DNA from: Candidatus Magasanikbacteria bacterium CG10_big_fil_rev_8_21_14_0_10_36_32
Lineage (GTDB): Bacteria > Patescibacteriota > Patescibacteriia > Magasanikbacterales > GWA2-37-8
Length of the DNA: 64,000 nucleotides
Assembly: GCA_002778465.1 (NCBI GenBank)
Contig: PFBV01000002.1
Span: 2,312-66,311, forward strand
Reading direction: 5' to 3'
Shown: piece by piece, positions 20,404 through 47,284 of the stretch
Layout of the letters: every line of letters begins with the position of its first letter
How positions within the stretch are numbered: the stretch's first letter is position 1
Notes under the pieces: generated by a model
Told to the model about the DNA's origin: nothing
The model's database searches: none
The model's input: only the letters and a program-made list of their open reading frames with translations
Program-made: the position numbers and the translations under genes

Positions 20404-20449
20404 TAAAAAATTATTATTTTATTTGTTTTGTTTTTAAAATAAATAACAA

Positions 20450-20487
20450 AAATAATACCCATTCTAATGGGTATTATTGTTTTTTTA
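20450..20487 (+). terminator. rho-independent terminator (stem TACCCATT..AATGGGTA)
   Basis: AATAATACCCA-TTCTAA-TGGGTATTATT followed by GTTTTTTT. Confidence 0.6.
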
Positions 20488-20565
20488 TAAAAAAGCCAGC
20501 CATGTTGATTTTTATTTAAAATTAAGGTAAAATTTTATTATTCAGCCAACCGATATAATCTTTTT

Positions 20566-21192
20566 ATGATTACCCATATAATTGAATTTTTAGCCAATAT
20601 TGTAATCAATGTTATTGATTGGTCGGGATATGCCGGCGTTTTTTTTCTTATGTTGGTGGAGAGTTGCGGGATTCCAATGCCTTCGGAGGTAATTATGCCG
20701 TTTGCCGGCTTTTTGGTTTCCAAAGGAAAATTGTTATTTTGGGCAGTGGTGTTTCTGGGTGCGGCAGGAAATTTAATCGGATCTTGGCTGGCTTATTTTA
20801 TTGGAGTTAAAGGTGGACGGCCTTTGTTGGAAAAATATGGCAAGTATATTTTAATTTCTAGGCATGATTTGGATGTGGCTGACAGGTGGTTTGTCCGTTA
20901 TGGAGAGGCGACTGTATTTTTTGGTCGTTTGTTGCCGGTTGTTCGTACTTTTATTTCTTTTCCGGCTGGAGTGGCAAAAATGAATTTTAAAAAGTTTTCT
21001 TTTTATACTTTTGCTGGCGCTTTACCCTGGTCATTATTATTTGCTTGGTTGGGTGTAAAAATGGGAAATAATTGGGATTTAATTCGTGCAAAATTACACA
21101 GTTTTGATTTATTTATAGGTTGTCTTGTTTTGATTTTAATAATTTGGTATATTTGGCGACATTTAAAACATCGGCGTGAATATGTTAAATAG
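20566..21192 (+). CDS. DedA/SNARE-associated family membrane protein
   Basis: ...VESCGIPMPSEVIMPFAGFLV... and ...GRLLPVVRTFISFPAGVAKMNFKKF... are DedA signatures. Confidence 0.75.
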   Translation: MITHIIEFLANIVINVIDWSGYAGVFFLMLVESCGIPMPSEVIMPFAGFLVSKGKLLFWAVVFLGAAGNLIGSWLAYFIGVKGGRPLLEKYGKYILISRHDLDVADRWFVRYGEATVFFGRLLPVVRTFISFPAGVAKMNFKKFSFYTFAGALPWSLLFAWLGVKMGNNWDLIRAKLHSFDLFIGCLVLILIIWYIWRHLKHRREYVK

Positions 21193-21685
21193 TTTTTTAG
21201 AAATAGTTATTAATTTTTTTTCAGTCTTTCCGCGGGATTTGGCTGTTTTTTTACTTAGTATGTTTCCGGTTGGTGAATTGAAATTATCTTTGCCGGTAGG
21301 ACTTTTGGTTTATCATTTGCCGATTTGGCAGGTAGTAGTTTTGTCAATCGTCGGAAATATGATTCCGACTACTGTAATTTTATTTTTTGCCGACCGCTTT
21401 CATTGTTGGGTGGAAAAACGATCCGGATTTTTTTCCAAGAGATGGATTAATACTCTTGCTAAAATACAAAAAAAATTTTCCGGTCGATATGAAAAATATG
21501 GTTTGATTATTTTAGTGTTGATAACCAGTATTCCCGTACCTGGTTCGGGCGCTTATGCTGGCGCGTTAGCCGCTTTAGTTTTTGGTATTTCGGTAAAAAA
21601 ATCCTTGCCTTGTATTTTTTCCGGTATCTTATTATCAACCCTGATAATTATATTGTTAACTATTGGTGTGGATAAGGTGTTCTAA
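21176..21685 (+). CDS. small polytopic membrane protein (COG2426-like small export protein, tentative)
   Basis: 169 aa, 4-5 TM helices. Overlaps the dedA stop. Confidence 0.4.
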   Translation: MNMLNSFLEIVINFFSVFPRDLAVFLLSMFPVGELKLSLPVGLLVYHLPIWQVVVLSIVGNMIPTTVILFFADRFHCWVEKRSGFFSKRWINTLAKIQKKFSGRYEKYGLIILVLITSIPVPGSGAYAGALAALVFGISVKKSLPCIFSGILLSTLIIILLTIGVDKVF

Positions 21686-21875
21686 GCAAAAATCATAAGT
21701 TTCAATGGCCAAACCCTGAACAATTTTATTTCAAATACCAAAGTCCAAATGTTAAAACCAAAACCTTTAATATTAAAAGTTAAATTAAAAATAGTAATGG
21801 TGTGTTTTTATCCTAGATTTGAGGTTTTGAGTTGTGGATTTGACATTTAACATTTGAGTTTTAAGATTATTTATT

Positions 21876-22949
21876 ATGTCTGATCGTTTGAAAAAAATTC
21901 AAGAAAAAATAGTAGAAGTATCCAAACTTTTAAAATTGGATGATTTAAAAAATAAAATGTCTCAGTTATCCGATGAAATGAACGCTTCTGATTTTTGGCA
22001 AAATCGTGAAAATGCCCAAGCGGTATCGCAAGATTATGAAGATATAAAAAAAGAATTGGAAAAATGGAAAGCGATTGAAACGAAAGCTGCCGATTTGGCG
22101 GAATTATCAGTTGTTAATGATCAATCATTGTCCGATGAAATAGAAAAACAAACCGCGGATTTGGAAAAAGAATTTTCTGAATATGAATTATATCTTTTAT
22201 TAAATGGACCTTATGACAAAAGCAATGCTGTGGTGGCGATTCATGCCGGTTCAGGCGGAACTGAAGCGCAAGATTGGTCAGAGATGCTTTTACGAATGTT
22301 TTTAAGATTTTGCGAATCGCGTGGTTGGAAAACAAAAATTATTGATGAATCGCGCGGGCAAGAGGCCGGCTATAAGTCAATTATGTTTGAGGTGACAGGA
22401 CGTTATGCTTTTGGTTATTTAAAATCTGAACACGGTGTTCACCGTTTGGTTCGTATTTCTCCGTTTGACGCAGAAAAAATGCGTCACACGTCATTTGCAT
22501 TAATTGAAGTATTGCCGGAATTGGATGATAAAATTGACATTAAATTGGAAACAAAAGATTTAAGAATTGATACTTTTATGTCCGGCGGACATGGTGGTCA
22601 AAGTGTTAATACCACTTATTCGGCGGTGCGAATTGTGCATATTCCGACTAATATTAGTGTTTCTTGTCAAAACGAGCGTTCACAACAACAAAATAAAGAA
22701 ACAGCTTTAAAAATTTTAAAAGCCAAATTATATCGTTTGGAAGAAGAAAAAAAAGCTAAAGAAAGAAATGAAATGCGCGGTGAATATAAATCAGCTGAAT
22801 GGGGCAATCAAATTCGTTCCTATGTGTTACATCCATATCATATGGTAAAAGATCACAGGACGGAGTATGAGTCGTCTGATCCCGAAGGAGTTTTGGAAGG
22901 AAATTTATTGCCATTGTCTGAAGCGTATTTAAAGTGGATTAAACAATAA
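21876..22949 (+). CDS. prfB: peptide chain release factor 2, intact ORF with no programmed +1 frameshift
   Basis: SPF tripeptide (VRISPFDA) and GGQ (SGGHGGQSVNTT). The continuous reading frame starts at the N-terminus. Confidence 0.85.
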   Translation: MSDRLKKIQEKIVEVSKLLKLDDLKNKMSQLSDEMNASDFWQNRENAQAVSQDYEDIKKELEKWKAIETKAADLAELSVVNDQSLSDEIEKQTADLEKEFSEYELYLLLNGPYDKSNAVVAIHAGSGGTEAQDWSEMLLRMFLRFCESRGWKTKIIDESRGQEAGYKSIMFEVTGRYAFGYLKSEHGVHRLVRISPFDAEKMRHTSFALIEVLPELDDKIDIKLETKDLRIDTFMSGGHGGQSVNTTYSAVRIVHIPTNISVSCQNERSQQQNKETALKILKAKLYRLEEEKKAKERNEMRGEYKSAEWGNQIRSYVLHPYHMVKDHRTEYESSDPEGVLEGNLLPLSEAYLKWIKQ

Positions 22950-22961
22950 AATGAAATTTTT

Positions 22962-23585
22962 ATGATTATTTTAAAAATAACCGATTTGGATAAGGTGGTG
23001 GAATTATTGCGAAAAGGAAAAGAAATAATTTTTCCGACTGAAACTTCGTATGGATTGGGTTGTGATGCCACCAATCAATTTGCAGTTGATACAATATTTA
23101 AGATAAAAGAAAGACCGATTGCCAAATCGTTGTTGATTATTGTGTTAAACGCGGAAACGGCTAAAAAATATTTGGTTTGGAATGAAATGTTGGAAAAAAT
23201 CAGCCAAAAATATTGGCCCGGTCCTCTGACCGTGATAGGAAGTTATAAAAAAAATCCGTTTTGGCAATTTTGGAAAAAAAATTTAGCTCGCGGTGTGGTT
23301 GGTACTGATAACAGCGTGGCTGTTCGCGTGACCGATTATCCTTTGATGAGTGAATTATCAGCCAGATTGGGTTGTCCGATAGTAGCCACATCAGCCAATG
23401 TTTCAGGCAATGGAGATTTTTATAATAGTCAGGAAGTTATCGGTCAATTTTCCGATCAGAAATTTTCTCCGGATGCTTTGATTGACGGCGGAGCTTTGCC
23501 TTTAAGATCGCCAACCACTATTGTTAGTGTAATTGATAATAAATTAAAAGTTTTGCGGCAAGGAGAATGTATTGTTGAAATATAA
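22962..23585 (+). CDS. tsaC: L-threonylcarbamoyladenylate synthase (YrdC/TsaC type)
   Basis: ...IFPTETSYGLGCDATN...KERP...SLLIIV... YrdC fold signature. Confidence 0.8.
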   Translation: MIILKITDLDKVVELLRKGKEIIFPTETSYGLGCDATNQFAVDTIFKIKERPIAKSLLIIVLNAETAKKYLVWNEMLEKISQKYWPGPLTVIGSYKKNPFWQFWKKNLARGVVGTDNSVAVRVTDYPLMSELSARLGCPIVATSANVSGNGDFYNSQEVIGQFSDQKFSPDALIDGGALPLRSPTTIVSVIDNKLKVLRQGECIVEI

Positions 23586-23634
23586 AAATAGTTAAAGATT
23601 CTTAAGTTTAATTAAAAAATTTATTTTACTGGAT

Positions 23635-24786
23635 ATGGTAATAGTTTATCCGACAAAATTATTCGGCTGGGCGATGATTATTTTATTTGCCATCAGTTCG
23701 GCTTTATTTATTGGTTCGCAAATTGTTTATACCGGCGCTTATGTGGACACGGAAATGTCATTGATGCTTCCGGCCGTTTTGTCAGATGAACACAAGTCGG
23801 ATGTTAAAACGAAATCGTCGCTCCGTGAAATTAAGGGAATTTATTTAACCGCTTATTCGGCCGGCAGTTCTAAAAAAATTGATGAAATTATCAGACTGAT
23901 AGACAGAACAGAGTTGAATGCGGTGGTGATTGATATAAAAGATTATAGTGGTTTGATTTTTTACGATAGCCAAGTTCCTTTGGTTAAGGAATTAAAATTA
24001 AAAGAAAAGCGTTTGGGCGATATTAAAGCGTTGATTGATAAGTTGCATCGCCATAAAATTTATGTGATTGCCAGACAGTCGGTTTTTCAAGACCCATTGT
24101 TGGCTGAGAAAAAAAACGATTGGGCGATAAAAAATAAAAATGGAGGTTTGTGGCGCGATAACAAAGGTTTGGCTTGGGTGGATGCGGCGAAAAAAGAAGT
24201 TTGGGATTATAATATTTTGATTGCCAAAGAGGCGGTTGCTTTGGGGTTTGATGAGATTAATTTTGATTATGTTCGTTTTCCATCTGACGGCAAAATGAGT
24301 GAAATGGTTTATTCCGGCGGAGAAAAAAAGAAATATCAAATTATGGCTGAATTTTACGCTTATGTTAGTAGGAAATTAGTTCGCGAACCGGCTTGGATTT
24401 CTATTGATATGTTTGGTTTGGTGATGGAAAAGAGTGGAGAAGATGATATGGCGATTGGTCAGCGTATTGTTGATGCGAATAATCAAGTTGATTACATTTG
24501 TCCAATGATGTATCCGTCACATTATCCGTCTGGTCATCTTGGTTTAAAAAATCCGGCTGATCATCCCTTTGAAGTGTTGGATAACGGAATGAATAAGGGT
24601 ATGACAATGTTTCAAAACACCAGGGCGCAACCGCGGCCTTGGTTGCAAGCTTTTAATTTGGGTGCTGATTATGACGCGACAAAAATTCGCGAGCAAATTG
24701 ATGCGGTGGAAAAATATGCTTCGGCAGGTTGGCTTTTGTGGAATGCCAGCAATAGATATAGTGATGCGGGATTAAAGTTAAATTAA
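23635..24786 (+). CDS. putative glycoside-hydrolase-like TIM-barrel protein (DUF4015/GHL type), membrane-anchored
   Basis: N-terminal TM helix. IKGIYLTAYSAGS...ELNAVVIDIKDYSGLIFY...GFDEINFDYVRFPSDG pattern. Confidence 0.45.
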   Translation: MVIVYPTKLFGWAMIILFAISSALFIGSQIVYTGAYVDTEMSLMLPAVLSDEHKSDVKTKSSLREIKGIYLTAYSAGSSKKIDEIIRLIDRTELNAVVIDIKDYSGLIFYDSQVPLVKELKLKEKRLGDIKALIDKLHRHKIYVIARQSVFQDPLLAEKKNDWAIKNKNGGLWRDNKGLAWVDAAKKEVWDYNILIAKEAVALGFDEINFDYVRFPSDGKMSEMVYSGGEKKKYQIMAEFYAYVSRKLVREPAWISIDMFGLVMEKSGEDDMAIGQRIVDANNQVDYICPMMYPSHYPSGHLGLKNPADHPFEVLDNGMNKGMTMFQNTRAQPRPWLQAFNLGADYDATKIREQIDAVEKYASAGWLLWNASNRYSDAGLKLN

Positions 24787-24798
24787 AATTATCAGATT

Positions 24799-25644
24799 AT
24801 GCCAAATTTATTCAATCAAGATTATTTGGCGCATCTTTGCGGAAAATATAATCTTCAACCGTCTAAGCATTACGGTCAGAATTTTTTAATTAATTTTGAG
24901 CCGGTTGAAAAGATGATTGATATATCCGATTTATCAGCTGATGATTCGGTGGTGGAAATTGGTCCGGGTTTTGGCGGTTTAACTTTTGTTTTGGCGGCTA
25001 AAACAAAAAAAGTTTTAGCTTTTGAAATTGAGAAAAAAATATCAGCTTATTGGGAAGAACAAATTAAAAAATACCCAAATATAGAAATTGTTTGGGGAAA
25101 TATTTTAAAACAAAATATAAATTTAAAATTAGAAGCAGGAAATTATAAAGTAGTGGCTAATTTGCCATATCAAATTACTTCATCGGTTATCAGATTTTTT
25201 TTGGAAGCGGAAAATCCGCCGGAGATTATGGTTTTAATGGTTCAAAAAGAAGTGGCGGACAGAATTTGCGCCGAGGCGGGGGATATGTCTTTATTATCGG
25301 TGGCGGTTCAATATTACGCTAAGGCGGAAATTGTCGCTCAAGTTTCGCGTTTAAATTTTTGGCCGGCGCCAAAAGTTGATTCGGCAATAATAAAATTATC
25401 AGTCAATAATCATCAGTCGGTTAAAAATAGTGAAGAATTTTTTAGAATTGTAAAAATTGGATTTGCCAATCGCCGAAAAATGCTGATAAAAAATTTGGAA
25501 TCAATTGTCGGTAAAAAAAACAGATCAAACTTAGAAAAAATTTTTATAAAATTGGATTTAAATCAAAAAATTCGAGCGCAAGAATTATCAGTGGAAAAAT
25601 GGAAACAGTTAACTGATTTATTGAAGCCGATTATCACTATTTAA
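24799..25644 (+). CDS. rsmA: 16S rRNA (adenine1518/1519-N6)-dimethyltransferase
   Basis: ...YGQNFLIN...VVEIGPGFGGLT...NLPYQITS... KsgA/RsmA motifs. Confidence 0.85.
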   Translation: MPNLFNQDYLAHLCGKYNLQPSKHYGQNFLINFEPVEKMIDISDLSADDSVVEIGPGFGGLTFVLAAKTKKVLAFEIEKKISAYWEEQIKKYPNIEIVWGNILKQNINLKLEAGNYKVVANLPYQITSSVIRFFLEAENPPEIMVLMVQKEVADRICAEAGDMSLLSVAVQYYAKAEIVAQVSRLNFWPAPKVDSAIIKLSVNNHQSVKNSEEFFRIVKIGFANRRKMLIKNLESIVGKKNRSNLEKIFIKLDLNQKIRAQELSVEKWKQLTDLLKPIITI

Positions 25645-25667
25645 TGTTGTTTTGATTTATGTTATAA

Positions 25668-26354
25668 TTGATAAAGCTTTATAAAATTATGATAGAGGAA
25701 CAAAATCAAGAAAATTCGCAAAATCAGTTTTCCAAAGAACATAAAATCGGGTTGGTTTTATTATCGCTTTTTGCCGTTTTAGCGGTTGGTTTGGGTATTT
25801 TACAAATTAGAAATAATGCTTATCGTCCGTTTGCTTTAAACAATTCAATCCCGCCATTTTTAAATGAAGAAATAAATACCGAGGAAGCATTGCGTTACCG
25901 TGATACGGATTTAGATGGCTTGAATGATTTTGATGAATTATATATTTACAGCACCAGTCCCTATTTGGAGGATACTGATTCTGATGGGGTTAAAGACAAA
26001 GAGGAAATTGACAAAGGACGAAATCCTCTTTGTTATGAAGGAAAAAATTGCGGTTTTAATGATATGAGCATTAATGCCAGTTCATTTCCGGCCAAACAGG
26101 ATAATGTAGCTTTATATGGCGAAGCGGCTCCGCAATCAATGGAAGAATATTTGCAGAATCCTGACACCATTCGTGAATTGTTACTTACTTCAGGTTTGAG
26201 TCAGGAACTAGTTAATAAATTAACTGATGATGATTTAAAGACAATGGCTGGAGAAATTTTTGCATCCACTACTTTAATGACTGCGTCAAGTACGTCGGAT
26301 GAAACTGATTTGAGCGCCACCGCTGAATTTATAAATGATTTAATGAATAAATAA
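25668..26354 (+). CDS. membrane-anchored protein with thrombospondin-type-3-like Ca-binding Asp-rich repeats
   Basis: N-terminal TM helix. DTDLDGLNDFDELY...DTDSDGVKDKEEIDKGRNP. Confidence 0.4.
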   Translation: MIKLYKIMIEEQNQENSQNQFSKEHKIGLVLLSLFAVLAVGLGILQIRNNAYRPFALNNSIPPFLNEEINTEEALRYRDTDLDGLNDFDELYIYSTSPYLEDTDSDGVKDKEEIDKGRNPLCYEGKNCGFNDMSINASSFPAKQDNVALYGEAAPQSMEEYLQNPDTIRELLLTSGLSQELVNKLTDDDLKTMAGEIFASTTLMTASSTSDETDLSATAEFINDLMNK

Positions 26355-26365
26355 TAATTTTTTAT

Positions 26366-27898
26366 ATGCCACAAAAGAAAATTGTGGTTTGGTTAATTAT
26401 GATTTTTGTATGCGGCGCGTTAGTACGACTGCCGCATTTTTTAACTGTCATTCCCAACGCCGGAGTTTGGGAGTCAAAAATCGCTTGGTATGATGAGGTT
26501 TTGTCTATTCATTTTGCTTCACAAGAAATAAATAGCACAATCGCTTTATCAGGTTTAGACACCAGTCCGTGTCTTTTTTTTATGATTCTTCATTTTTGGC
26601 TTTTGATTTTTAGTAACGCCAGTGTGTTTGTTGCGGCCATTCTGCCTTTTTTGTTCAGTTTAGCCGGCATTGTCGCTATTTATTTTCTCGGTCGGAGAAT
26701 TTACGACGAAAAAATTGGTTTGTTTTCCGCCGCTTTGCTTGCTTTATCTCCTTTAAATATTCAATATGCCACAGAAATCAGAGTCTATTCATTATTGGTT
26801 TTTTTGACAATTTTATTTTTGTTGTTTTTGTGGCGAATTAAGGATTTGAGCAAAATAAAAGATTGGACAGGATTTATCATCTGTTCTTTATTATTGCTGT
26901 ATGCTCATTATACGGCAATAATTTTAATTATTTTTGGTTTTATGTTTTTAGTGTTTTTTAAAAGAAATGAAACCAAGAAAATAATTTTTTCTTTTTTTGC
27001 AATCTCTGTTGGAGTAATTCCTTTAATTTTAATTTTTCAAAGATGGACGGATTTTGTCGGCGCAAATTTTTCTTTTTTTAGCCGTTTTTTTTCACATGGC
27101 GGTTTGTTGTCATTTTTTCAATATTTATATTTTATTTCTTTCGGTTCATCCGGCGCCGATGGAGCGATGATAATTTTTTCGTTGTTGATTGCCGGTTTTT
27201 TTATTTATTTTTGGCGGCGCTCAGTGGATATTAACAGTCGAGTTTTAATTGTTTTCGTTATTGCCGGTTGGTTGGCATTGGCCGGTTTTAAGTTTATTTA
27301 TCATGAACGATATTATTTAATTTTGACTATTCCGCTGATATTATTGGCGGCTGTCGCCTTGCGAATTGTTTTTGAAAAATATCGTCTGGTGAGCGTGATA
27401 GGCGGTTTATTGTTTTTGTTTATTTTTATTTTTTCTTGTTATATTGTTCCACCCGAGCACGCTTATAAATATTTTACGCCTGAGTTTGTTAAGATAATCA
27501 ACAGCCAATATCAAACAGGGGATGTGATAATTGCCGATCATTATAGTAAATTATTATGGAATCAATATTATCCTGGACCGGCTGAAATTAAATTATTTTT
27601 TCCTTATGAAAATGAATTGTTGCCGGCTGATTCAAATTTGCGCTGGCGATTTAGCGATTACGCCAATGTTAATTCTGACAATGTCGTTTTATTTGATAAT
27701 TTAGTAAAAAATGAACAAAGATTTTGGATTGTTATGTTTAATCCTCTAAATTATTCAGTTCAAGATCCGCAAGGATTACTGCCTGAATATTTAGACAGCC
27801 ATTATTCAAGGTGGGCGACTTATTTTTTTCCGCTTTTTGTCTCGAAAAACGACTTTCAGGTTGAATTACGATTATATGTCGTAAAACCAGCTGATTAA
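26366..27898 (+). CDS. polytopic membrane protein, GT-C-fold glycosyltransferase-like (ArnT/PMT type, tentative)
   Basis: About 11 TM helices with a DE motif (AWYDEV) in the first extracytoplasmic loop. Confidence 0.4.
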   Translation: MPQKKIVVWLIMIFVCGALVRLPHFLTVIPNAGVWESKIAWYDEVLSIHFASQEINSTIALSGLDTSPCLFFMILHFWLLIFSNASVFVAAILPFLFSLAGIVAIYFLGRRIYDEKIGLFSAALLALSPLNIQYATEIRVYSLLVFLTILFLLFLWRIKDLSKIKDWTGFIICSLLLLYAHYTAIILIIFGFMFLVFFKRNETKKIIFSFFAISVGVIPLILIFQRWTDFVGANFSFFSRFFSHGGLLSFFQYLYFISFGSSGADGAMIIFSLLIAGFFIYFWRRSVDINSRVLIVFVIAGWLALAGFKFIYHERYYLILTIPLILLAAVALRIVFEKYRLVSVIGGLLFLFIFIFSCYIVPPEHAYKYFTPEFVKIINSQYQTGDVIIADHYSKLLWNQYYPGPAEIKLFFPYENELLPADSNLRWRFSDYANVNSDNVVLFDNLVKNEQRFWIVMFNPLNYSVQDPQGLLPEYLDSHYSRWATYFFPLFVSKNDFQVELRLYVVKPAD

Positions 27899-28015: not shown

Positions 28016-31000
28016 TTGATTTTGATATTTATGATGAAATGTCCGCGAAAAATTAGTCTGAAAATTTTAATGGCCTTATTTATCGTGTCAGGTTTTTTTG
28101 GCACGGCGATTTTTGGAGTGGAAAAAGCTCAGGCGCAATACGATAATCAAATCAATGCTTCGTTTTTATCTTGGCAGGCGCAGGGTGAAGCGGAAAAAGC
28201 CAAGGCCGAAGTTCAGTCAAATTTATTGAAGAATAAAAATTACATGGTGATGAATGCGGTTATTAATGCCATGAGTTATTTTGCCAATAAAATTTCTTAT
28301 GATATGGCTGTTTGGCTGGCATCGGGTGGAAAAGGACAAGCGCCGTTTTCAAGTACTTCCGGATTTTTTAAATATTTAGGGCAAGTAACCGGAGATTCTC
28401 TCGGTGAATCGCTTGGTTCATTGGGTGAGAGTCTTGGTTTAAATATCTGCGATTTGCCGGATCCGCGGCTGGACTTGGCGCTTCAATTAGGTTTAAATTT
28501 TCATTATGCTGAACCGACACCGAAATGTTCCTGGCAGGATTTAAAAAAAGCTTACAGCGTGGAAAATTTTAAAAGTAAATATCTGAGTCAGGAAGGAACC
28601 ATTGGAAGGTTGTCCGCTTCAGTGACGGTTAAAGATACTGATTTTGGCATTTGGACTGACGCTCGCGCTAAGATTGACGGCATAGCTGTTCAAAAAGAAA
28701 ATGCCGCCCAAGCTGATCGTGAAGAAGGAAGCGGTATGAAAGCTGTAACCGATTTAATTTCCGGACAAGTTAAAACGCCGGCCGTGGTAGTGAAAGACAC
28801 GATGATGAAACAGTCGGCTGACAGTAAAATGACAAAAGAGGAAGCAAAAAAGACCGGTGAGGTTTGGGGAGCTTTCGGCGCGGGCGCTACTCAAGTCGCG
28901 TATAAAGCGGCCAGCACTTTTATCAGTACCATGCTTGGTACGGTGCTTAAGAATTTTATGGAGGGTGGTATGTTGCCGGGAGGACACAAAGTTTGTAATC
29001 CGGGTTTGACATTGACCGGTGTTAATTTGGAACCGTGTTCCAGTGATTCTTCAGGCGGCAATAATTTAGCTGATAATTATTACGCTGACGCCAGAAATAC
29101 TGATAATCGTGCCGCCGCTCAAGCTATGTTTAGCCAATTGTTGATACCCCAAATAAAAACTCTGGATAATTATAATTTGATTGCCAGTTTGGCGGAATGT
29201 TCACCTGAAAATTTATCGCCGGACAGTTGTGTGGTAGATCAATCGTTTTTACAAATTTTACAGTCAGCCGATAATGGAGAATCTTTAACTGTTAAACAGG
29301 CGATGGAAAAAGGCTGGCTACACGGAGATTGGAAAATGATTTCATCGCTTGATAAAGCCGCTTCGCAAAAACAAGATTGTTCCCAGAGCGCTTATTGTCA
29401 GCGTAATATGACATTTTTGCGTCAAGCCAGAATTTTGTCGGTTGGTTTTGAATTTGCCGCGCTTTTATCGCCGGTAAATAATCCGGTTAGCTTAAAAGAA
29501 GTAGTAGACAATTTTTATACCGTTGGCAGTCCTTATTATCATTTGATTAATCCGCATTGGGTTATTAAATTGCCAAAAATTCGCTGTAAAGCTTTTACTT
29601 TCAGTTCTATCGCTCAAAATGGCGCGCGATTGGAAGAATGTTCTGATTTGCAACATTGTGTTGGTTACAATAAAGACGGTTCTTGTCAGACTTGGGGTTA
29701 TTGTATGAAAGAACGTCCAATTTGGAAATTTAATGCCAATTACTGTGATTCGCAATATAGCACTTGTCGAGCATTTACTGATTCTGATGGAAATAGCGTC
29801 GGATATTTGGTTAGAACGTTGGATACCAGTTTTTGCGGAGAAGATACAGATGGTTGCCGTCGTTATTCGGCCGGTAAAGTTTATGCCAGCGCTACTAATT
29901 CCGTTTGGTTGCCGGAAGAAATAAAATATAATACCGTTTCTAATTATTTTTACAATTCCAGTTTATATTTTAATAAAAAACTAACCAGCTGTGACGCTAA
30001 AGATGACGGTTGTTCGGCTTTTAAATTAGCTTCTAAAACTGATACTTTATTATATTTGCGCAAAGCGCCGGATTATCTCGGTTGTTATGATGCTGATTTA
30101 AAATCAGTTCCGGCTAAATTATATGATGGAATTGCTTGGCCGAAAAATTTAACCGAATTAAGTTTGGTTACTCCGCAAAATACTGAAGCTTGTAAAAATT
30201 ATGCTCAGGTTTGTTTGCCTGAAGAAGAAAATTGCAATCTCTACACTTCTGTTTTAAATCAGGAAGCAATACCTGGTAAATTTAAACCGGCTGAAATAGT
30301 TTCCATGACCGCCGGTCAGCAATTAGTTTGGAATGATCAGTGCGATGCTTCTTGTGTCGGTTATGCCGCTTATAAAGAAATGCCAAGCAGTTATACTAAT
30401 GGAGAAAATTTGGCATATATTATTCCTTCATCCGGAAACACCTGCACATCTTATGATGCAGGTTGTTCAGCTTTTACGAATTTGAGCACCACTAATCCGT
30501 CAGGTATGGAACAAACTGAATATTTTTCTTATTTGCGTTCCTGTATTTTGCCGGATCAAACAAAACAAAAAACTTTTTATCTTTATGAAAGTTCAGAATC
30601 AGGCGGATATAAACTGCAAACTTTTGTTTTAGAAAAAGACGCTACTGGCGCGCCAAAACAAATTTGGCGAGATATATCTGAAATTGATTCATTTGGTGAT
30701 TGTGATTCAACCAGTTATGCCGCCGGAACGGCTGATCCGGATTGTCATCAGTTTAATGACGATGGTGGAAATATTTATTATAAATATCTTTCAAAAACAA
30801 TTTTAGTATCGGAAAATTGCAATCCTTATCGTTTGAACAATACCGAGTTGGTTGATGGACAATGTCCGTTTGATTTTGACGGTTTTGGCAATCGTGTTGG
30901 TAATGCGGTGGAGAAAATCAATGAGGCTTGTTATTATTATGGTTTGCCGGTAGGAGATACCAGGGGAGCAGGGGAAACAAAAGTTTGTTCAGCCGCGACT

Positions 31001-34000
31001 AATTCATGCCGCGCCTACAAGGGTAATGCCGGCAATAATGTGCGGGTGGTTTTTCAAGATAATTTTGAAAATGAAGAAATAGGCGATTGGTCTGGAGGTT
31101 TGGGCGGCAGTTTGGAAATTTCCTTGGAATCAAATCAAATTAATGGCCATTCATTAAAGAATTTTGGTCAAGATGGTTTTTATCGTCAGAATGTTGAGGT
31201 TGCAGAAGGTAAGAGTTATGTTTTAACTTTTTGGGCCAAAGGTAATGCTATTATTTTTCCTTCTTTTCAAGATGAAGGAGTTTATAAATTAAGTTTTGGT
31301 GATGCGGTTAGCTTGACTGATGTTTGGCATTATTATTCTTTCGGACCGTTAGAATTTAATCAATCAGTTACCAGTACATATTTAAATTTTAATATTTCAG
31401 GTACGGGATTAAAAAATGTTTTTATAGACAATATAAAATTAATGGAAATTACCGATTACCTGTATTTGGTTAAAAACAGTTTAAGTGTTAATCAGATTTG
31501 TGATAGTAATTTGGAAGATAATATGCCGGGTGAGGCGTTGGGTTGCACGGCCTATAAAGATCCATTAAATAATATATATAATTTAACCAATTTCAGTTAT
31601 CTTTGTCGTGAAGCGGCGGTTGGTTGTACTGCTGTGTTGGATACATATAATACTTTGAATACTGCCGAACCGCGTACTTATAATGTGTGGCTTTATGGCG
31701 AGATGATAAATTTAGATGGTCGGAGCGCTGAGGTGGTAATCGGTGGAAAAACTTTTTCATGTATTGTGCCGACAGGAGCGAAAGGTTGTTATGTTGATAT
31801 TTTTGGACCGACTTTGGCGCAAATAGTAAGTGTTAGTGTTCCTGGTATTTTAACTTCTTCCACTATTTATATTCCGGGAGATACGCCAACCAGTTCACCG
31901 ATTTATTTGGTGGCCAACAAATCGGCAACTTGTAAATCTGAAAATATCGGTTGTCGATCGGTTGGAAAAGGCACTGTCACCAGAGATGGAGTATTGAATC
32001 CTTTGTCCAGTGAATATGAAGATGTGGCGGTTAAAAATGATCCGGCGCTGTTTGATGATGTTTTGTGCGGCAGTGAATCGGTAGGTTGCCGCGGTTACAC
32101 ATCCGGTGACAGCAAATATTATTTTAAAGATCCGAAAATTATCGGCCAACGCGTTTGTGCTTATATGTCCGCTAAAAATGATAGTGGCTTGCCGATTATG
32201 GGTTGGTATTGGAAAGATAATAAAATGTGTGGCGATTCATCCGGATTTTGTTCATCAGATGCCGATTGCGCCGCCGGAGTTAAATGTCAAAATGTTCCGT
32301 GTTATCCTCTTTATTATAAATTTAATGAAACACAAGGCGCTATTGAATGGGGATTGTGGTCTTTTGGCAGTACTCAGTATAAAGGTTTTGTGGGACAATG
32401 TCCTGAAGAACAAAACGGTTGTACTGAATTTATAGATCGTGCCAGCAGCGCTCAGGTTTCTGGTAAAAAATGCGCTTTCACTGGCAAAAAATGTGAACTA
32501 AATAGTGATTGCAATGAAGAAGAAAATGATTATTGTAAAGAAAATGTTTCTGGCACTTATTATCTTTTAAATGATGGAGTTTTGGCTGAAACAAAAAATA
32601 AATGTAATGGCATGGTCAGTCAAGCCGAAGGTTGTATTTTGCTTGATCAAACGGACAAGCCGAATAAATATTGGAATACCACTTCAACCTATGAAGTTTC
32701 CCAATCCGCTCAAGATGCTTTTGTTGTGCCAGTAGATAAAGCCGAATTAAACGATGCCAATATAATTTTAAAAGTTACCCACGACAGAGAATGCGCTGAA
32801 TGGGGATATTGCGATTTAAAACAAGATTATAAAGATGAAGATACTGGTGAAACAACTTCTCGTTGTTATCATTTGGGTGTTTGTCAAAAAGCGACCGGTT
32901 CTTCAATTTTTAACAAAGAATGTTTGGTGCCGGTTACTCAATGGGATGATAAAAATCAGGAACTCTCATTGGCTCATTATAATTCCCGTGAAGCTTATTG
33001 GGATTCTTTGGATTACTCCGGTTATTCAGTGCCATGGCTTTACTCAATTGCTGATTTAACCGCTCGTCCGTTGGCTGGTGATAATTTTCATTTGGTTCAT
33101 GTTGATTACAGTGAAGATGCGGCGGGAGATTGTAATGGCAGCGCCGACAATGGAGATGTTTGCGGTTTGGATGATACGGGAAAGTGTTTTAACGGAGAAT
33201 GTTTGCATTCACCAAATAATTATTCCTCTTTGACTAACCATTTAACATTGTTAAATTGTCGTGGTAACGCCGAAGATTCCAGTCCGTTTCCATCATCTGT
33301 TTTGACTGATGAAAGCGCCAGTTTAGATTATAAAATATTTAAATCAGGATTTGAGAGTGTTAATTTATGTTATGATAAATCCGGCAGTGTGGTAAATTGT
33401 GATTGCAGTTATAAAAAATTAAGAACTTCAGCTGGTGATGTTTATACCCCGTCCAATCAGTCAGTTGGCAGTTCATATGTTTGTAGTGGTGGAACAAAAC
33501 AAGGTAAATTCTGTAATGGAAAAGATGATATCACCACTTGCGGCAGCGATGGTATTTGCGGCGTTATTCAAACATTGAGCGCAATGAACGGCTGGCAGGG
33601 ATATTGTTTGGAACGTGATACGCGACAGTTTATCAATGGCACTGAAACCGGAAATTGTTTGACTTGGTGGCCGATTGAAGTTCCGCCGGGGACTACTAAT
33701 ATTTGGGATATTGACGATTCAGCTGGTTATCAAATTGCTGAAGGAAAACAAGACAGGTTTATGTGTTTGGTTAATGAGCCGGTTATTAACGATCCTGAAA
33801 TAATGATGCATATATTATTATATGGGAGTCATGTTTCCGCAGCCAATGATTATAATATTCAGCAATTACCCAAATCTTATAAAATACAAACCGCCGGTCT
33901 TGACCATAGTTTTAAAATAACCGATTTGCCGCCCAATGCGGCTGTATCTGGTTGTTCGGACAATAATGCGGATGATGATTTTTATGACCCGTTACCTGGA

Positions 34001-36127
34001 ACGCCCAGTAATAATGTATATAATTATCAGATATATGACTATGATAGCAATAAAAATTCAAAAGGAAAGTTTTGTCCAATAAACAGAGAAACTTTGCGCA
34101 AGGATGGCGATACAATGCGAATGTGTGCGAATCCAACTTGGGATGATGATAATCAAACCTATTCTGAATGTCCGCCGTCGGGTATTCTCGCTGCCGATGG
34201 TACGCGTTGGGTAAATAACAACTATGAAAATAAATATTTCCATCGCAATGAAATAGAAAGAATTGATATTGTTTTTGATAGAATAGGCGATGATCAATAT
34301 GCTGATGGATATATTAGTTTTATAACAGACAGTATTAACGCTGTTGAAGGTCATGCTTTTGATACGGAAGAACATTTTTTAAATAAAGAAGGAGAAAGCG
34401 CGACTAAGGGCGTGGTTGATAATTATGAAATGAGATGTCCGGATTGGAATAGTATTGAAGATGGATTGGGAAATTTAAGAGCTTGGGAATGGCGCGGTGG
34501 AGTAGGTGTTCCATCGTGGACTTTGCCTGATGCGGATGATACAACATTAAGTAAAATGCAAGTTCTCGCTCAGGGTGTTTGTGAAGATTTATACAGAGAA
34601 GTTCAAGTTAAATCAAGTGAAGTAAATCAGAAAAATTTGGCTATAAGAGTGGTTTGGGATGGAGATTATCATTTACGCGGTATTTGGGTAAATTTGGAAA
34701 ATACGGGGTCGGCTGATGTAAACGCTGGATTCTTTTTCGTAATCCATTTTAATGATGGCCGTTGTGAAAAATTTGCCAAAGTTGCCACCGATACTGCTTC
34801 AAAAGATTTTGCTTTTAAACCATTCACTAATAATTTAGCGACAGGCAAAACAATCAATATGGGTTCCGCGCCGGTTGGTATTACTTTAACTGACAGAGTT
34901 TCTAATTTAAACGGTGGAAATTACGGATTAGCTTGGGGCGAGGGAGAATATTTAGAACCGCCAAGCGCCAGTGTTAAAGAAGCCTTTGTAAATCCGTTTA
35001 TACCATGGCCCAATACGCATCTTTTTATTGATACTGTGATTTTTTCACAGGGCGGCGATTATTTAAAAAATTATGAAATGACCAATTTTAAAGCCGGCGT
35101 GCCGTTGGTTTGGGCAAGATACGGATTGGCAAAATATGAAGACGGAGGTATTTATGATGGACCTGATTATACAACATTTAATAGTGAGATTTTTGATGTT
35201 TCAACTGTAGATATGCCGTGGGAAATTATGTTGGAAAATATGTACGCCAAAGTTTTTGGACAGTATGAGCAAAGTTACAGTGGTGGTATGCCGACTGAAT
35301 TTACATTATTATCCGGCACGGAATTAGATATGGCAAATTCTGCTAACGCTATCAAAAGCGGATTAAAAATTTATCCGCCTCATGTGGCCGCGCCGATTAT
35401 CGGTTCAACCGGAGATGATTGGCAGTTGGATGCCATATCCGTTAATGACAGGGTGTCCGGTGATATTTATTTAGTCAGCGGTTCGCAGGTGCATATTAAA
35501 TTTTATGCTTGGGCTCATGGTAATCAAATGCCATTGAGAAAAATCTGGGTTGATAAAGGTGATGGAATTAAAATCAGCAATGATAGTGTCAGTTTTGGCA
35601 ACCGCAAATTTAAATGCGCCGAAGGCACTTGTGGCGCCACTGCTGGCGGCTGGCAATTTCCTTGTGAAAATAATGATGATTGTGCGCCATTGTATAGTGA
35701 TTCAATCACGGACGATTCTACTGCCTGTTATTATCCGGCTGCATATGACCATCGTAAGTTTGGTAATACCGGAGATACCGGTTGTCATGAAGGTCCGTAT
35801 GATTTTGTTACTGATTTTAATTGTCCTTACGGCGATTTGACGCATTGGCCTGTTAGTTGGTTGGAACCGGAAGAACAGGCTTATATTCAAAGTCAATTTG
35901 GAGATATTAGTTATGTTTGTATGGTACAACCAAAAGTCCAAGTGACTGATAATTGGGGTTGGTGTAATGGAACTTGTAAAACTACTTATGCTGGAGGTGG
36001 TTCTAATATTGAGGGTGATGGTTGTTATGAAGATTATAGTGGGAAAGATTGTTCAACCGACGAATATGGCAATAACAAAGCTTGGACTAAATATAACGGA
36101 AGATTAATCATTATTCCAACACAATAA
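28016..36127 (+). CDS. giant (2,703 aa) secreted/anchored cysteine-rich protein with a recurrent C-x(3-6)-[DN]-G-C-[STR]-x-[FY] motif
   Basis: N-terminal signal anchor. At least 14 copies of the motif (e.g. DTDGCRRYS, KDDGCSAFKL, YDAGCSAFTNL, LGCTAYKDP, VGCTAVLDTY, IGCRSVGKG, VGCRGYTSG, NGCTEFIDR). No catalytic signature recognised. Confidence 0.7.
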   Translation: MILIFMMKCPRKISLKILMALFIVSGFFGTAIFGVEKAQAQYDNQINASFLSWQAQGEAEKAKAEVQSNLLKNKNYMVMNAVINAMSYFANKISYDMAVWLASGGKGQAPFSSTSGFFKYLGQVTGDSLGESLGSLGESLGLNICDLPDPRLDLALQLGLNFHYAEPTPKCSWQDLKKAYSVENFKSKYLSQEGTIGRLSASVTVKDTDFGIWTDARAKIDGIAVQKENAAQADREEGSGMKAVTDLISGQVKTPAVVVKDTMMKQSADSKMTKEEAKKTGEVWGAFGAGATQVAYKAASTFISTMLGTVLKNFMEGGMLPGGHKVCNPGLTLTGVNLEPCSSDSSGGNNLADNYYADARNTDNRAAAQAMFSQLLIPQIKTLDNYNLIASLAECSPENLSPDSCVVDQSFLQILQSADNGESLTVKQAMEKGWLHGDWKMISSLDKAASQKQDCSQSAYCQRNMTFLRQARILSVGFEFAALLSPVNNPVSLKEVVDNFYTVGSPYYHLINPHWVIKLPKIRCKAFTFSSIAQNGARLEECSDLQHCVGYNKDGSCQTWGYCMKERPIWKFNANYCDSQYSTCRAFTDSDGNSVGYLVRTLDTSFCGEDTDGCRRYSAGKVYASATNSVWLPEEIKYNTVSNYFYNSSLYFNKKLTSCDAKDDGCSAFKLASKTDTLLYLRKAPDYLGCYDADLKSVPAKLYDGIAWPKNLTELSLVTPQNTEACKNYAQVCLPEEENCNLYTSVLNQEAIPGKFKPAEIVSMTAGQQLVWNDQCDASCVGYAAYKEMPSSYTNGENLAYIIPSSGNTCTSYDAGCSAFTNLSTTNPSGMEQTEYFSYLRSCILPDQTKQKTFYLYESSESGGYKLQTFVLEKDATGAPKQIWRDISEIDSFGDCDSTSYAAGTADPDCHQFNDDGGNIYYKYLSKTILVSENCNPYRLNNTELVDGQCPFDFDGFGNRVGNAVEKINEACYYYGLPVGDTRGAGETKVCSAATNSCRAYKGNAGNNVRVVFQDNFENEEIGDWSGGLGGSLEISLESNQINGHSLKNFGQDGFYRQNVEVAEGKSYVLTFWAKGNAIIFPSFQDEGVYKLSFGDAVSLTDVWHYYSFGPLEFNQSVTSTYLNFNISGTGLKNVFIDNIKLMEITDYLYLVKNSLSVNQICDSNLEDNMPGEALGCTAYKDPLNNIYNLTNFSYLCREAAVGCTAVLDTYNTLNTAEPRTYNVWLYGEMINLDGRSAEVVIGGKTFSCIVPTGAKGCYVDIFGPTLAQIVSVSVPGILTSSTIYIPGDTPTSSPIYLVANKSATCKSENIGCRSVGKGTVTRDGVLNPLSSEYEDVAVKNDPALFDDVLCGSESVGCRGYTSGDSKYYFKDPKIIGQRVCAYMSAKNDSGLPIMGWYWKDNKMCGDSSGFCSSDADCAAGVKCQNVPCYPLYYKFNETQGAIEWGLWSFGSTQYKGFVGQCPEEQNGCTEFIDRASSAQVSGKKCAFTGKKCELNSDCNEEENDYCKENVSGTYYLLNDGVLAETKNKCNGMVSQAEGCILLDQTDKPNKYWNTTSTYEVSQSAQDAFVVPVDKAELNDANIILKVTHDRECAEWGYCDLKQDYKDEDTGETTSRCYHLGVCQKATGSSIFNKECLVPVTQWDDKNQELSLAHYNSREAYWDSLDYSGYSVPWLYSIADLTARPLAGDNFHLVHVDYSEDAAGDCNGSADNGDVCGLDDTGKCFNGECLHSPNNYSSLTNHLTLLNCRGNAEDSSPFPSSVLTDESASLDYKIFKSGFESVNLCYDKSGSVVNCDCSYKKLRTSAGDVYTPSNQSVGSSYVCSGGTKQGKFCNGKDDITTCGSDGICGVIQTLSAMNGWQGYCLERDTRQFINGTETGNCLTWWPIEVPPGTTNIWDIDDSAGYQIAEGKQDRFMCLVNEPVINDPEIMMHILLYGSHVSAANDYNIQQLPKSYKIQTAGLDHSFKITDLPPNAAVSGCSDNNADDDFYDPLPGTPSNNVYNYQIYDYDSNKNSKGKFCPINRETLRKDGDTMRMCANPTWDDDNQTYSECPPSGILAADGTRWVNNNYENKYFHRNEIERIDIVFDRIGDDQYADGYISFITDSINAVEGHAFDTEEHFLNKEGESATKGVVDNYEMRCPDWNSIEDGLGNLRAWEWRGGVGVPSWTLPDADDTTLSKMQVLAQGVCEDLYREVQVKSSEVNQKNLAIRVVWDGDYHLRGIWVNLENTGSADVNAGFFFVIHFNDGRCEKFAKVATDTASKDFAFKPFTNNLATGKTINMGSAPVGITLTDRVSNLNGGNYGLAWGEGEYLEPPSASVKEAFVNPFIPWPNTHLFIDTVIFSQGGDYLKNYEMTNFKAGVPLVWARYGLAKYEDGGIYDGPDYTTFNSEIFDVSTVDMPWEIMLENMYAKVFGQYEQSYSGGMPTEFTLLSGTELDMANSANAIKSGLKIYPPHVAAPIIGSTGDDWQLDAISVNDRVSGDIYLVSGSQVHIKFYAWAHGNQMPLRKIWVDKGDGIKISNDSVSFGNRKFKCAEGTCGATAGGWQFPCENNDDCAPLYSDSITDDSTACYYPAAYDHRKFGNTGDTGCHEGPYDFVTDFNCPYGDLTHWPVSWLEPEEQAYIQSQFGDISYVCMVQPKVQVTDNWGWCNGTCKTTYAGGGSNIEGDGCYEDYSGKDCSTDEYGNNKAWTKYNGRLIIIPTQ

Positions 36128-36138: not shown

Positions 36139-36178
36139 AAAAATCCCCCAACAATTTAGTTGGGGGATTTGTTTTTTT
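36139..36178. terminator. bidirectional rho-independent terminator between convergent genes
   Basis: AAAAATCCCCCAAC-AATTTA-GTTGGGGGATTT flanked by A-run and T-run. Confidence 0.7.
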
Positions 36179-36222: not shown

Positions 36223-36747
36223 TCAAGCGTAACCTGACTGAATCAGATTGCCATTGGATAGTATAGTCGCTATCAGCCAGCCGCAACTGCCGGTTTTTAC
36301 CAGTGGCAGATTCTTTCCTTGATAATCTCCCTTGAGAAAAGCGAGAGTGCCGTTTCCGGTAAAGTTTACCACGCACATATTTCCGATTTCCGGAGTGATT
36401 GTGACGGTCATCACCATGGTAGTTTCAGTGTTGTACCAGTCGCCGGCGATATGTGTCAGCTCATTGCAACTAGCAGGATCAATGAAAACCAGTTTGGACA
36501 ATTCCGTGTCCATCACACTGTTTTCCGGCTCGGTAATGATTGGCGGCAGATTGAGATCTGAATCGCCGTTCATTTCTGAATCGCCGTATTCATCCATCAA
36601 TTCGCCACCATCAATGTCTTCGTCATAAGGATAACATCCAGATGTTATAACGGCGAACAAGAGCATTACAGCAATGGCTATAATTGCAATGACAATTGTG
36701 GCAACCGCTCCTACTGTAACATGGGAATCATAATGTAAATTTCTCAC
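36223..36747 (-). CDS. membrane-anchored hypothetical protein; locally GC-richer gene
   Basis: N-terminal TM helix (VGAVATIVIAIIAIAVMLLFAVI), then an acidic segment. GC visibly above the flanks. Confidence 0.5.
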   Translation of the reverse strand: MRNLHYDSHVTVGAVATIVIAIIAIAVMLLFAVITSGCYPYDEDIDGGELMDEYGDSEMNGDSDLNLPPIITEPENSVMDTELSKLVFIDPASCNELTHIAGDWYNTETTMVMTVTITPEIGNMCVVNFTGNGTLAFLKGDYQGKNLPLVKTGSCGWLIATILSNGNLIQSGYA

Positions 36748-47158: not shown

Positions 47159-47221
47159 TACGAGATGATTTGTTCAGTGTTTGACTTTTCAATTTATTTT
47201 TGCTATTATTATCCGAGAATT

Positions 47222-47273: not shown

Positions 47274-47284
47274 TAATAAAATTT

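Follow-up and report, generated by a model that had tools for sequence, protein, structure and literature searches.

A cysteine-rich giant protein family of Patescibacteria and its possible part in T4SS host contact

A large part of the diversity of bacteria belongs to the Patescibacteria (CPR), which apparently live attached to other cells. The ultrasmall groundwater bacterium from which the present DNA derives is probably host-dependent as well. The window, i.e., the whole 64-kb stretch of DNA that was analysed, contains a single uninterrupted open reading frame (ORF) of 8.1 kb for a secreted protein at positions 28016..36127 on the forward strand, where an earlier note made from the sequence alone had already placed it. 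An identical protein is recorded in NCBI as a hypothetical protein of Candidatus Magasanikbacteria (COU29_00535, 2,697 aa). The length of 2,703 aa given earlier was counted from TTG 28016, a start that lies 15 nt too early; in view of the 2,697 aa of the NCBI record, translation probably begins at ATG 28031 or 28034 (2,698 or 2,697 aa).

28031..36127, + strand: giant gene, 2,698 aa plus stop, likely start ATG 28031 or 28034

By sequence comparison, the giant protein is a member of a very large, unnamed family in Patescibacteria (CPR) lineages, which include Magasanikbacteria, Jacksonbacteria and the Parcubacteria group. An exhaustive HMM profile search at a threshold of E<=1e-30 returned about 1,300 cluster representatives, and the best 150 of these all score above 990 bits and are mostly 2,500-3,300 aa long. 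Besides the identical NCBI protein, 34 close relatives were found. Literature searches yielded no published description of the family, and Pfam, NCBIfam and PDB, searched with the whole protein as well as with family profiles, gave a CBM match only. Extra domains occur in distant members: CBM-like inserts, PA14 or a dockerin, the last a Pfam match in one of them.

Repeating a word-index homolog search with alignment brought almost no gain, and the true size of the family became apparent only in the exhaustive HMM search.

Conservation, profile matches and structure prediction divide the protein into the following regions:

28031..28135, + strand: signal peptide, aa 1-35, hydrophobic aa 7-33, predicted cleavage AQA|Q
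28136..29020, + strand: conserved N-terminal region, aa 36-330, defined by conservation, with the motif AVWLASGGKGQxPF
29183..29575, + strand: small alpha/beta domain, aa 385-515, the most conserved part (LHGDWKL, RILPLGFEIAA, HLIxPxW)
29585..31030, + strand: Cys-rich core I, aa 519-1000, C-x6-C hairpins at 572, 602, 654, 721, 728, 805 and 986
31043..31450, + strand: CBM4/9/22-type beta-sandwich, aa 1005-1140
31451..33766, + strand: Cys-rich core II, aa 1141-1912, C-x6-C hairpins at 1192, 1301, 1346 and 1457
33767..35380, + strand: hypervariable, indel-rich region, aa 1913-2450, column occupancy 0.3-0.5
35381..36124, + strand: conserved C-terminal region, aa 2451-2698, defined by conservation, AF2 pLDDT 65-88

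The N-terminal hydrophobic stretch previously described as a signal anchor is present at aa 7-33 and is the only clear hydrophobic segment of the protein, a second and weaker one lying at aa 1257-1275. Signal peptidase would cleave after A35, judging from the family consensus PAxA|Q. The giant protein lacks LPXTG and an SLH domain, and it has neither a further clear transmembrane segment nor a hydrophobic stretch at its C-terminus. In the adjoining N-terminal region, C140 and C166 are fully conserved, and a variable pair, C322/C336, occurs in about one third of relatives; the region gave no PDB or Pfam match and is predicted by AF2 to be helical, at a pLDDT of only 30-60. The small alpha/beta domain reaches a pLDDT of 74-85 (AF2) and contains the near-invariant residues N459, R464 and E474.

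Although the earlier note saw no recognisable domains, aa 1005-1140 adopt a CBM fold. The Pfam family CBM_4_9 (PF02018) matches here with 17.9 bits, below its gathering cut-off of 25.9, and is on record for many relatives; the predicted beta-jelly-roll superposes on solved CBM4/22 modules and holds the conserved aromatics W1020, W1068, W1099 and Y1102. A self-comparison produced a single off-diagonal match, a weak internal similarity between aa ~481-1044 and ~1088-1669 (hhalign probability 61%). In the hypervariable region, close relatives are 12-37% identical, compared with 45-70% elsewhere, conservation being limited to C2245 and a short island at aa 2200-2280. In the C-terminal region, a beta-rich domain (FYAWAxxNQMPxR..VDxGDG) precedes a Cys-rich end that contains DNWGWCxGxC, and the protein terminates in ...YNGRLIIIPTQ. 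AF2 returned a poor model for aa 36-1140 (14 sequences, pLDDT 54, pTM 0.29) and a moderate one for aa 1499-2698 (30 sequences, pLDDT 61, pTM 0.54); a Foldseek search of the latter against PDB gave nothing below E 0.5 and no enzyme-like fold. With both models low to moderate in quality, the absence of a known fold outside the CBM is a weak negative.

The giant protein contains 99 cysteines (3.67% of residues), 98 in the mature part, which bears out the abundance remarked on before. The mature count is even in 145 of 150 full-length representatives, over a range of 84-140 (p=8.6e-37), and gains and losses within the family comprise local pairs or four-Cys modules. The even count and the paired gain and loss indicate that the cysteines are paired and, together with the Sec signal, strongly support the disulfide-stabilised extracellular modules proposed earlier. 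The recurring unit is C-x6-C, found 13 times against 2.6 expected and equalled in none of 2,000 shuffles, while C-x5-C occurs eight times against 2.7 expected. In eight C-x6-C copies Gly precedes the second Cys, and in six of these that Gly is at least 80% conserved in the family. The motif put forward in the earlier note, C-x(3-6)-[DN]-G-C-[STR]-x-[FY], fares less well: its quoted example strings all exist, yet the strict pattern matches three times rather than 14. Nearly all cysteines of core I are at least 97% conserved among 156 representatives, and core II includes four-Cys mini-modules at 1400-1419, 1481-1502, 1701-1724 and 1818-1843. CxxC is absent from the core (0 against 3.2 expected); a Zn- or Fe-S-type metal cluster was rejected on this absence, on the lack of a conserved His and on the even parity, which favours disulfides. 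A biochemical puzzle follows, as a reduced-genome bacterium would need ~49 disulfides in one exported protein. A scan of ORFs in the window revealed no disulfide-forming (Dsb-like) enzyme, and the CG10 sample presumably came from apparently anoxic groundwater.

Across the family, 135 positions are at least 95% conserved: 58 Cys, 21 Gly, 11 Pro and 22 aromatic residues are among them, and no His. These positions appear structural, and three fold searches returned no enzyme fold, in line with the earlier remark that no enzymatic motif is visible. Together with the CBM, dockerin and PA14 inserts and the hypervariable region, they point to binding rather than catalysis.

Upstream of the giant gene, the following genes are relevant:

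25668..26354, + strand: small partner gene, probable start ATG 25689, encoding a single-pass membrane protein
26366..27898, + strand: PMT_2 (GT-C glycosyltransferase) gene between partner and giant gene, lineage-specific

The small partner carries two Ca loops of the EF-hand/TSP3 type (DTDxDGLNDFDE, DTDSDGxxDKxE), along with a conserved pair of Cys. TSP3_bac matches all nine small-partner members, and the top-ranking PDB entry is 7c7u, the EF-hand region of Bap; within the pair formed by the small partner and the giant protein, neither a dockerin nor a cohesin profile matched. A homolog of the partner lies upstream of the giant gene in 36 of 36 loci with enough flank. An apparent fusion of the two ORFs in L037 was ruled out by an internal stop. 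KsgA is found upstream in 32 of 34 loci, and the housekeeping genes RF1, Sua5 and DUF4015 also keep their order. Among the loci compared, the PMT_2 insertion was seen only here and in the P0002 locus. The downstream side is arranged as follows:

36141..36170, bidirectional: intrinsic-terminator-like hairpin, 12-bp stem with 6 G-C pairs, T-runs on both strands
36223..36747, - strand: convergent small gene, 174 aa, acidic, signal/lipobox-like, fast-evolving, one hydrophobic segment
37095..40247, + strand: VirB6/TrbL-like gene, polytopic membrane N-terminus and long hydrophilic charged C-terminal region, possibly coiled coil
40280..42461, + strand: two conserved genes of the T4SS cluster, 343 aa and 395 aa (ORF 41274-42461, overlapping the end of the first)
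42464..45463, + strand: PrgI (VirB3-like), TrsD/TraC-like protein and VirB4 ATPase

The hairpin and the convergent gene (GC 0.45 compared with 0.365 for the window) correspond to the shared bidirectional terminator and GC-richer neighbour of the earlier note; counterparts of the convergent gene occupy the same position in L001, L003, L006 and L007. A VirB6-like gene follows the giant gene in 20 of 25 loci with enough flank, the five without it being L004, L006, L009, L037 and L040, and counterparts at this position in distant loci match Pfam TrbL_3. PrgI, TrsD and VirB4 come next in this window and in L001, L003, L005, L034, L039 and the P0167 locus; the order as far as VirB4 is complete in close loci and likewise in L005, L039 and the P0167 locus, which are distant loci at 25-30% identity. 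A search for related loci with a narrower alignment reached mainly Magasanikbacteria. The pair of small Ca-loop gene and giant gene usually stands at the upstream edge of a chromosomal T4SS cluster. In a Saccharibacterium, the single species examined in this respect, the T4SS is essential for epibiotic growth (PMC10633639), and a 2025 survey of Patescibacteria T4SSs found KsgA and ComF near virB4 and no PrgB-like adhesin (PMC12102498). Huge, constant in length, invisible to Pfam and adjacent to the T4SS, the present family is a concrete candidate for this host-contact part, which is still missing.

The best explanation, to which we give an even chance, is that the giant protein is a Sec-exported, disulfide-stapled surface protein that makes host contact for the T4SS. 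In this model, Sec export and signal peptide cleavage would release a mature protein of ~2,660 residues, and oxidative folding outside the cell would convert its 98 cysteines into ~49 mostly local disulfides. The product would be a long, largely beta-rich scaffold carrying at least one CBM4/9/22-type sandwich, the hypervariable region and the conserved C-terminal domain. The small membrane partner, the VirB6-like protein or both might keep it at the surface; such retention is conjectural, as no recognisable anchor remains after signal-peptide cleavage. The CBM-type module and the variable region could then reach host-cell surface polysaccharide, and a contact through which the T4SS works would be made or stabilised. 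Glycan and host binding, like the functional coupling to the T4SS, are inferred, and it is gene order alone that ties the protein to the T4SS. The linkage of the housekeeping gene KsgA is at least as tight, so that the block may be an old conserved neighbourhood. The hypervariable region could mark host range. A more far-reaching version is tentative, and we would sooner doubt it than adopt it: here the family would supply the Patescibacteria T4SS, in the lineages that carry it, with its missing extracellular arm, one polypeptide of ~49 disulfides with a Ca-binding membrane tether, seated on the VirB6/TrbL-like channel, replacing a pilus or PrgB-type adhesin and recognising host glycans through its CBM-type and hypervariable regions. 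In this way it would contribute to the choice of hosts from which the ultrasmall cells, once attached, draw material.

The same gene order can be read in another way, which is rather unlikely in our estimation: the protein may act on its own at the surface as an adhesin or in host recognition, with the Ca-binding partner as its tether, and have no mechanistic tie to the T4SS, the adjacency being inherited gene order of a conserved stretch of chromosome. The sequence KsgA, small partner, giant gene is indeed steadier than the association of giant gene and VirB6-like gene, the housekeeping RF1, Sua5 and DUF4015 are likewise retained, the pair occurs without nearby T4SS genes in L004, L006 and L040, and in the window the giant gene is set off from the T4SS genes by a convergent gene and a strong terminator. 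However, the order from giant gene to VirB4 persists at 25-30% identity where other flanking genes differ, and in the P0167 locus the TrbL_3 gene begins 49 nt past the giant gene.

A structural envelope protein, e.g., an S-layer-like or cell-surface lattice component, would fit a very widespread, length-constant, secreted family whose conserved residues are structural, and a conserved, possibly highly expressed neighbourhood (PMC12102498). Against it, a Pfam search found no SLH or other wall-binding domain, ~49 disulfides are unusual for S-layer proteins, and the hypervariable region and the variable CBM, dockerin and PA14 inserts resemble ligand recognition. S-layer proteins are typically Cys-poor. 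We consider this reading improbable, and an S-layer protein was rejected on the missing SLH domain and the Cys content.

Still less probable is the delivery to the host of a secreted toxin or of an enzyme that degrades the envelope, although the protein is giant and secreted, the organism is probably host-dependent, and genes for a putative glycosyl hydrolase (DUF4015) and for a glycosyltransferase lie close by. There is no catalytic constellation and no conserved His, no immunity-like gene pattern accompanies the conserved C-terminus, and the Sec signal speaks against a T4SS substrate. The toxin reading was rejected on these grounds. A polymorphic toxin (Rhs/CDI-like) does not fit either, since aa 2451-2698 are conserved and the variation precedes them, and no RHS or YD match was obtained. 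Among the roles originally left open (adhesin, toxin-like and S-layer-like), the latter two are thus disfavoured. An assembly or annotation artefact, i.e., a fused or read-through ORF, might be suspected for an unusual 8.1-kb ORF from a metagenome-assembled genome and had been named earlier as what would overturn the finding, yet it is virtually excluded by the intact frame, by an architecture that is colinear throughout the family in more than 150 independent relatives of similar length from many samples, and by Cys positions kept all along the protein in even number.

Among known systems, the host-contact model may be compared with PrgB (the aggregation substance of pCF10) and related surface adhesins of Gram-positive conjugative T4SSs. 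There, too, a monoderm (MPF-FATA-type) T4SS comes with a gene for a large surface protein that is exported by Sec, and the role proposed here is likewise cell-to-cell contact. Like PrgB, the giant protein is encoded within a T4SS cluster, with the VirB6-like gene downstream and PrgI, TrsD and VirB4 following. In contrast, it lacks LPXTG, is about twice as long and would hold ~49 disulfides; Pfam, NCBIfam and PDB gave no match to PrgB adhesin domains, nor was any sequence or fold likeness to them seen. With the giant bacterial surface adhesins SiiE, LapA, Ebh and Bap it shares size, secretion, a likely elongated extracellular shape and a Ca-binding element, located here in the partner and resembling the Bap EF-hand region. 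Those proteins are poor in Cys and string together tens of Ig-like repeats in tandem, whereas the giant protein is essentially non-repetitive and disulfide-stapled, and the absence of any Big, Ig or Cadherin Pfam match sets it apart from tandem-repeat adhesins. In the CBM4, CBM9 and CBM22 modules of xylanases, laminarinases and cellulosomal enzymes the fold recurs, but in the giant protein the module makes up ~5% of a Cys-rich scaffold with no catalytic domain. The cohesin-dockerin pairs of the cellulosome offer a parallel in that a duplicated Ca-loop motif sits in a separate membrane-anchored protein beside a large CBM-bearing secreted protein, although the loops of the partner score as TSP3_bac and the interaction is putative. 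Finally, dense local disulfides, small Cys-knotted mini-modules and, in the partner, TSP3-type Ca loops recall disulfide-rich extracellular proteins of eukaryotes, with their LDL-receptor/EGF-type modules, and thrombospondin; the giant protein matches none of their profiles, is bacterial and follows a spacing of its own, that of C-x5-G-C hairpins.

The open reading frame at 28016-36127 (+), for which the earlier note had described a giant secreted protein, is uninterrupted, as confirmed by ORF scan and translation. Its earliest in-frame ATG codons are situated at 28031 and 28034, and the identical NCBI entry ([quoted passage not shown]) comprises 2,697 aa; the length is therefore 2,697-2,698 aa instead of the 2,703 aa first given (positions below refer to the 2,698-aa form). 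The only clear hydrophobic segment covers residues 7-33, with a weaker window at residues 1257-1275. This segment agrees with the proposed N-terminal signal anchor, but a permanent anchor is not favored: the family consensus near residues 31-36, PAxA|Q, is a typical signal-peptidase I site and the N-terminus is therefore inferred to be a cleaved signal peptide. The giant protein is real and secreted.

A word-indexed search identified 34 relatives of 2,000-3,900 aa. An exhaustive HMM search, in which a profile of residues 36-1140 was compared with 1.84 billion cluster representatives, yielded 3,316 matches at E<=1e-3, of which 1,300 reached E<=1e-30; the top 150 all exceeded 990 bits and were mostly 2,500-3,300 aa long. 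The giant protein belongs to a very large, length-conserved family. Named members were assigned to Candidatus Magasanikbacteria, Candidatus Jacksonbacteria, the "Parcubacteria group" and the "Patescibacteria group," while a few labels (e.g., Methanoregula, Udaeobacter, "uncultured Gammaproteobacteria") seem to stem from mis-binning or to be placeholders. Members share a colinear architecture: residues ~100-1900 are conserved, residues 1913-2450 form a hypervariable, indel-rich segment (12-37% identity among the closest relatives vs. 45-70% elsewhere), and residues 2451-2698 are again conserved. Because of this colinearity, an assembly artefact, including the fused mis-assembly named earlier as an outcome that would overturn the gene, is excluded. 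A literature search of limited coverage found no publication describing the family.

The abundance of cysteines held true (99 residues, 3.67%). At least 14 copies of C-x(3-6)-[DN]-G-C-[STR]-x-[FY] had been reported; as literally written, this pattern matches only three times, yet an underlying regularity exists. C-x6-C occurs 13 times (2.6 expected; equalled in 0 of 2,000 shuffles) and C-x5-C eight times (2.7 expected), whereas CxxC is absent (3.2 expected). Glycine precedes the second cysteine in eight of the 13 C-x6-C copies and, in those at 602, 654, 805, 1192, 1301, and 1346, is at least 80% conserved in the family, with variable residues in the loop. In 150 full-length representatives, one per 50%-identity cluster, between 84 and 140 cysteines follow the signal peptide, and their total is even in 145 (p=8.6e-37); the mature giant protein of the window contains 98, which implies about 49 disulfides. 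Fifty-eight cysteines are at least 95% conserved across the family. Non-universal cysteines are gained or lost as nearby pairs (322/336, 1244/1253, 1711/1724, 1780/1790, 2585/2598, 2649/2665) and also co-vary as four-cysteine mini-modules (1400/1407/1413/1419, 1481/1488/1494/1502). Parity, co-variation and motif content are three independent lines in favor of the suggested disulfide stabilization, and the protein is very probably fully disulfide-bonded. Zn or Fe-S sites are disfavored, as CxxC and conserved histidines are both missing.

The statement that no domains are recognizable requires one amendment. Pfam returned a sub-threshold CBM_4_9 match (a carbohydrate-binding module, CBM) at residues 1006-1120 and nothing else; CBM_4_9 is on record for many relatives, and CBM22/CBM4 modules were the only matches of family profiles to PDB sequences. 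The protein thus has at least one CBM-type sandwich besides its hypervariable segment, and only this module of ~135 aa belongs to a known fold. An AF2 model of residues 1499-2698 was mostly beta and weak (pLDDT 61, pTM 0.54), and its Foldseek comparison with the PDB gave no match below E 0.5. Distant members carry additional CBM-like inserts at other positions, a dockerin in one case and PA14 in another. In a profile self-comparison, residues ~481-1044 weakly matched residues ~1088-1669 (window 29471-31162 vs. 31292-33037, +; probability 61%, E 8e-5, 442 columns). This may reflect ancient duplication of a ~560-aa super-module, but cysteine bias could inflate the score. The 135 positions conserved at 95% or more include, besides the 58 cysteines, 21 glycines, 11 prolines and 22 aromatic residues, only about 15 polar residues and no histidine. 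Such a make-up is characteristic of scaffold or binding proteins rather than of an enzyme, and is in line with the previously noted lack of an enzymatic motif.

Genes and features surrounding the giant gene, in order
RF1
22962-24786, Sua5/YrdC and DUF4015 (putative glycosyl hydrolase), separate genes
KsgA
25668-26354 (+), 228-aa membrane protein, the small partner
26366-27898 (+), PMT_2 (GT-C) glycosyltransferase
28016-36127 (+), giant gene
36141-36170, terminator hairpin 3' of the giant gene
36223-36747 (-), convergent small gene
37095-40247 (+), VirB6-like gene; 1,050-aa protein with polytopic membrane N-terminus and long hydrophilic, charged C-terminal region
two uncharacterized genes
PrgI (VirB3-like), TrsD/TraC-like protein, VirB4 ATPase
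45494-46852 (+), 198-aa uncharacterized gene, then ComF, directly after VirB4
47165-47527 (+), small GIY-YIG nuclease-domain ORF, in the gap following ComF

Both the bidirectional terminator and the GC-richer convergent gene described earlier were recovered, the latter with a GC content of 0.45 (GC3 0.46) vs. 0.365 for the window. Its product begins with a signal/lipobox-like N-terminus, continues with a highly acidic linker and ends in a small cysteine-containing domain. Counterparts of the same design at the same position in four loci (L001, L003, L006, L007) share an (A/E)GDWY..C motif but are barely alignable, so this is a fast-evolving gene. Elsewhere in the window, a second giant ORF (3918-9683, +; 1,921 aa; Big_6, Flg_new_2, and Big_13 domains) encodes a surface protein of the conventional Ig-repeat type; response regulators flank it, and a PAS histidine kinase comes next. 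Of 51 ORFs with 120 aa or more, the minus strand carries only eight: two with clear Pfam matches (ClpP, DHH), the convergent gene, and five inside longer plus-strand ORFs. Cumulative GC skew climbs steadily over positions 1-64000, which fits a single replichore with no origin inside.

Forty related loci, sampled with a bias towards Magasanikbacteria, were compared using tblastn. A homolog of the small partner was found upstream of the giant gene in all 36 non-redundant loci with enough flank, immediately adjoining it in the loci inspected. The partner contains a transmembrane helix, two EF-hand/TSP3-type loops (DTDxDGLNDFDE, DTDSDGxxDKxE) and a conserved cysteine pair; TSP3_bac matches nine of nine members, and in the PDB the best match is to the EF-hand region of staphylococcal Bap. 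The PMT_2 gene was found only in the window and, differently placed, in the P0002 locus; conjecturally, its enzyme could glycosylate the Ser/Thr-rich giant protein. A VirB6-like gene lies downstream of the giant gene, within about 0.6-6 kb, in 20 of 25 loci, and the complete order through VirB4 exists in L001, L003, L005, L034, L039, and the P0167 locus. In L039 and P0167 the gene after the giant gene matches Pfam TrbL_3; in these two and L005 the giant protein is only 25-30% identical to that of the window and the other flanks differ. The giant gene thus always comes with the gene of a small Ca-loop membrane protein and usually lies at the edge of a type IV secretion system (T4SS) cluster. 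Sua5/YrdC and DUF4015 are fused (~577 aa) in L001 (4800-6530) and L003 (6517-8253). In the distant P0026 locus (L004), a second giant gene (18720-26861, 2,713 aa) directly follows the first and a third large, Laminin_G-rich protein (1,715 aa) is encoded further downstream, with no T4SS genes nearby.

Patescibacterial T4SSs are related to the monoderm MPF-FATA class and usually have no relaxase; KsgA is a frequent neighbor of virB4, joined by comF in class ABY1 (2025 survey, PMC12102498). The window agrees on both genes, and ComF together with ComEC (12797-14278) agrees with the competence-gene association of ABY1 loci (PMC12102498). The survey annotated neighbors with Pfam, NCBIfam, and TIGRFAM (PMC12102498), none of which recognizes the giant family. 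A Saccharibacterium cannot grow on its host without the T4SS (PMC10633639; PMC12857230).

The genomic context is the main addition to the earlier observation. Judging from gene order, we consider the chances about even that the giant protein is retained on the cell surface as a host-contact protein, where it would bind host surface polysaccharide and serve the T4SS. Somewhat unlikely, yet the main rival, is an adhesin of the same kind mechanistically unconnected to the T4SS: the unrelated housekeeping gene KsgA is tied to the giant gene even more tightly (32 of 34 loci), in the window a strong terminator and a convergent gene stand between the giant gene and the T4SS genes, and five loci (L004, L006, L009, L037, L040) show no T4SS genes near it. 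An S-layer-like structural component appears improbable, and a toxin or enzyme, given the residues conserved, highly improbable. The giant protein does not qualify as a member of the PrgB-type, Ig-repeat, S-layer, or polymorphic-toxin families, and is best regarded as a putative giant bacterial surface or contact protein. As a host-contact protein serving the T4SS, it would act as PrgB-type adhesins do for Gram-positive conjugation systems; this proposed role is what it has in common with known giant adhesins and T4SS adhesins, from which it differs in sequence, fold, anchoring, and chemistry.
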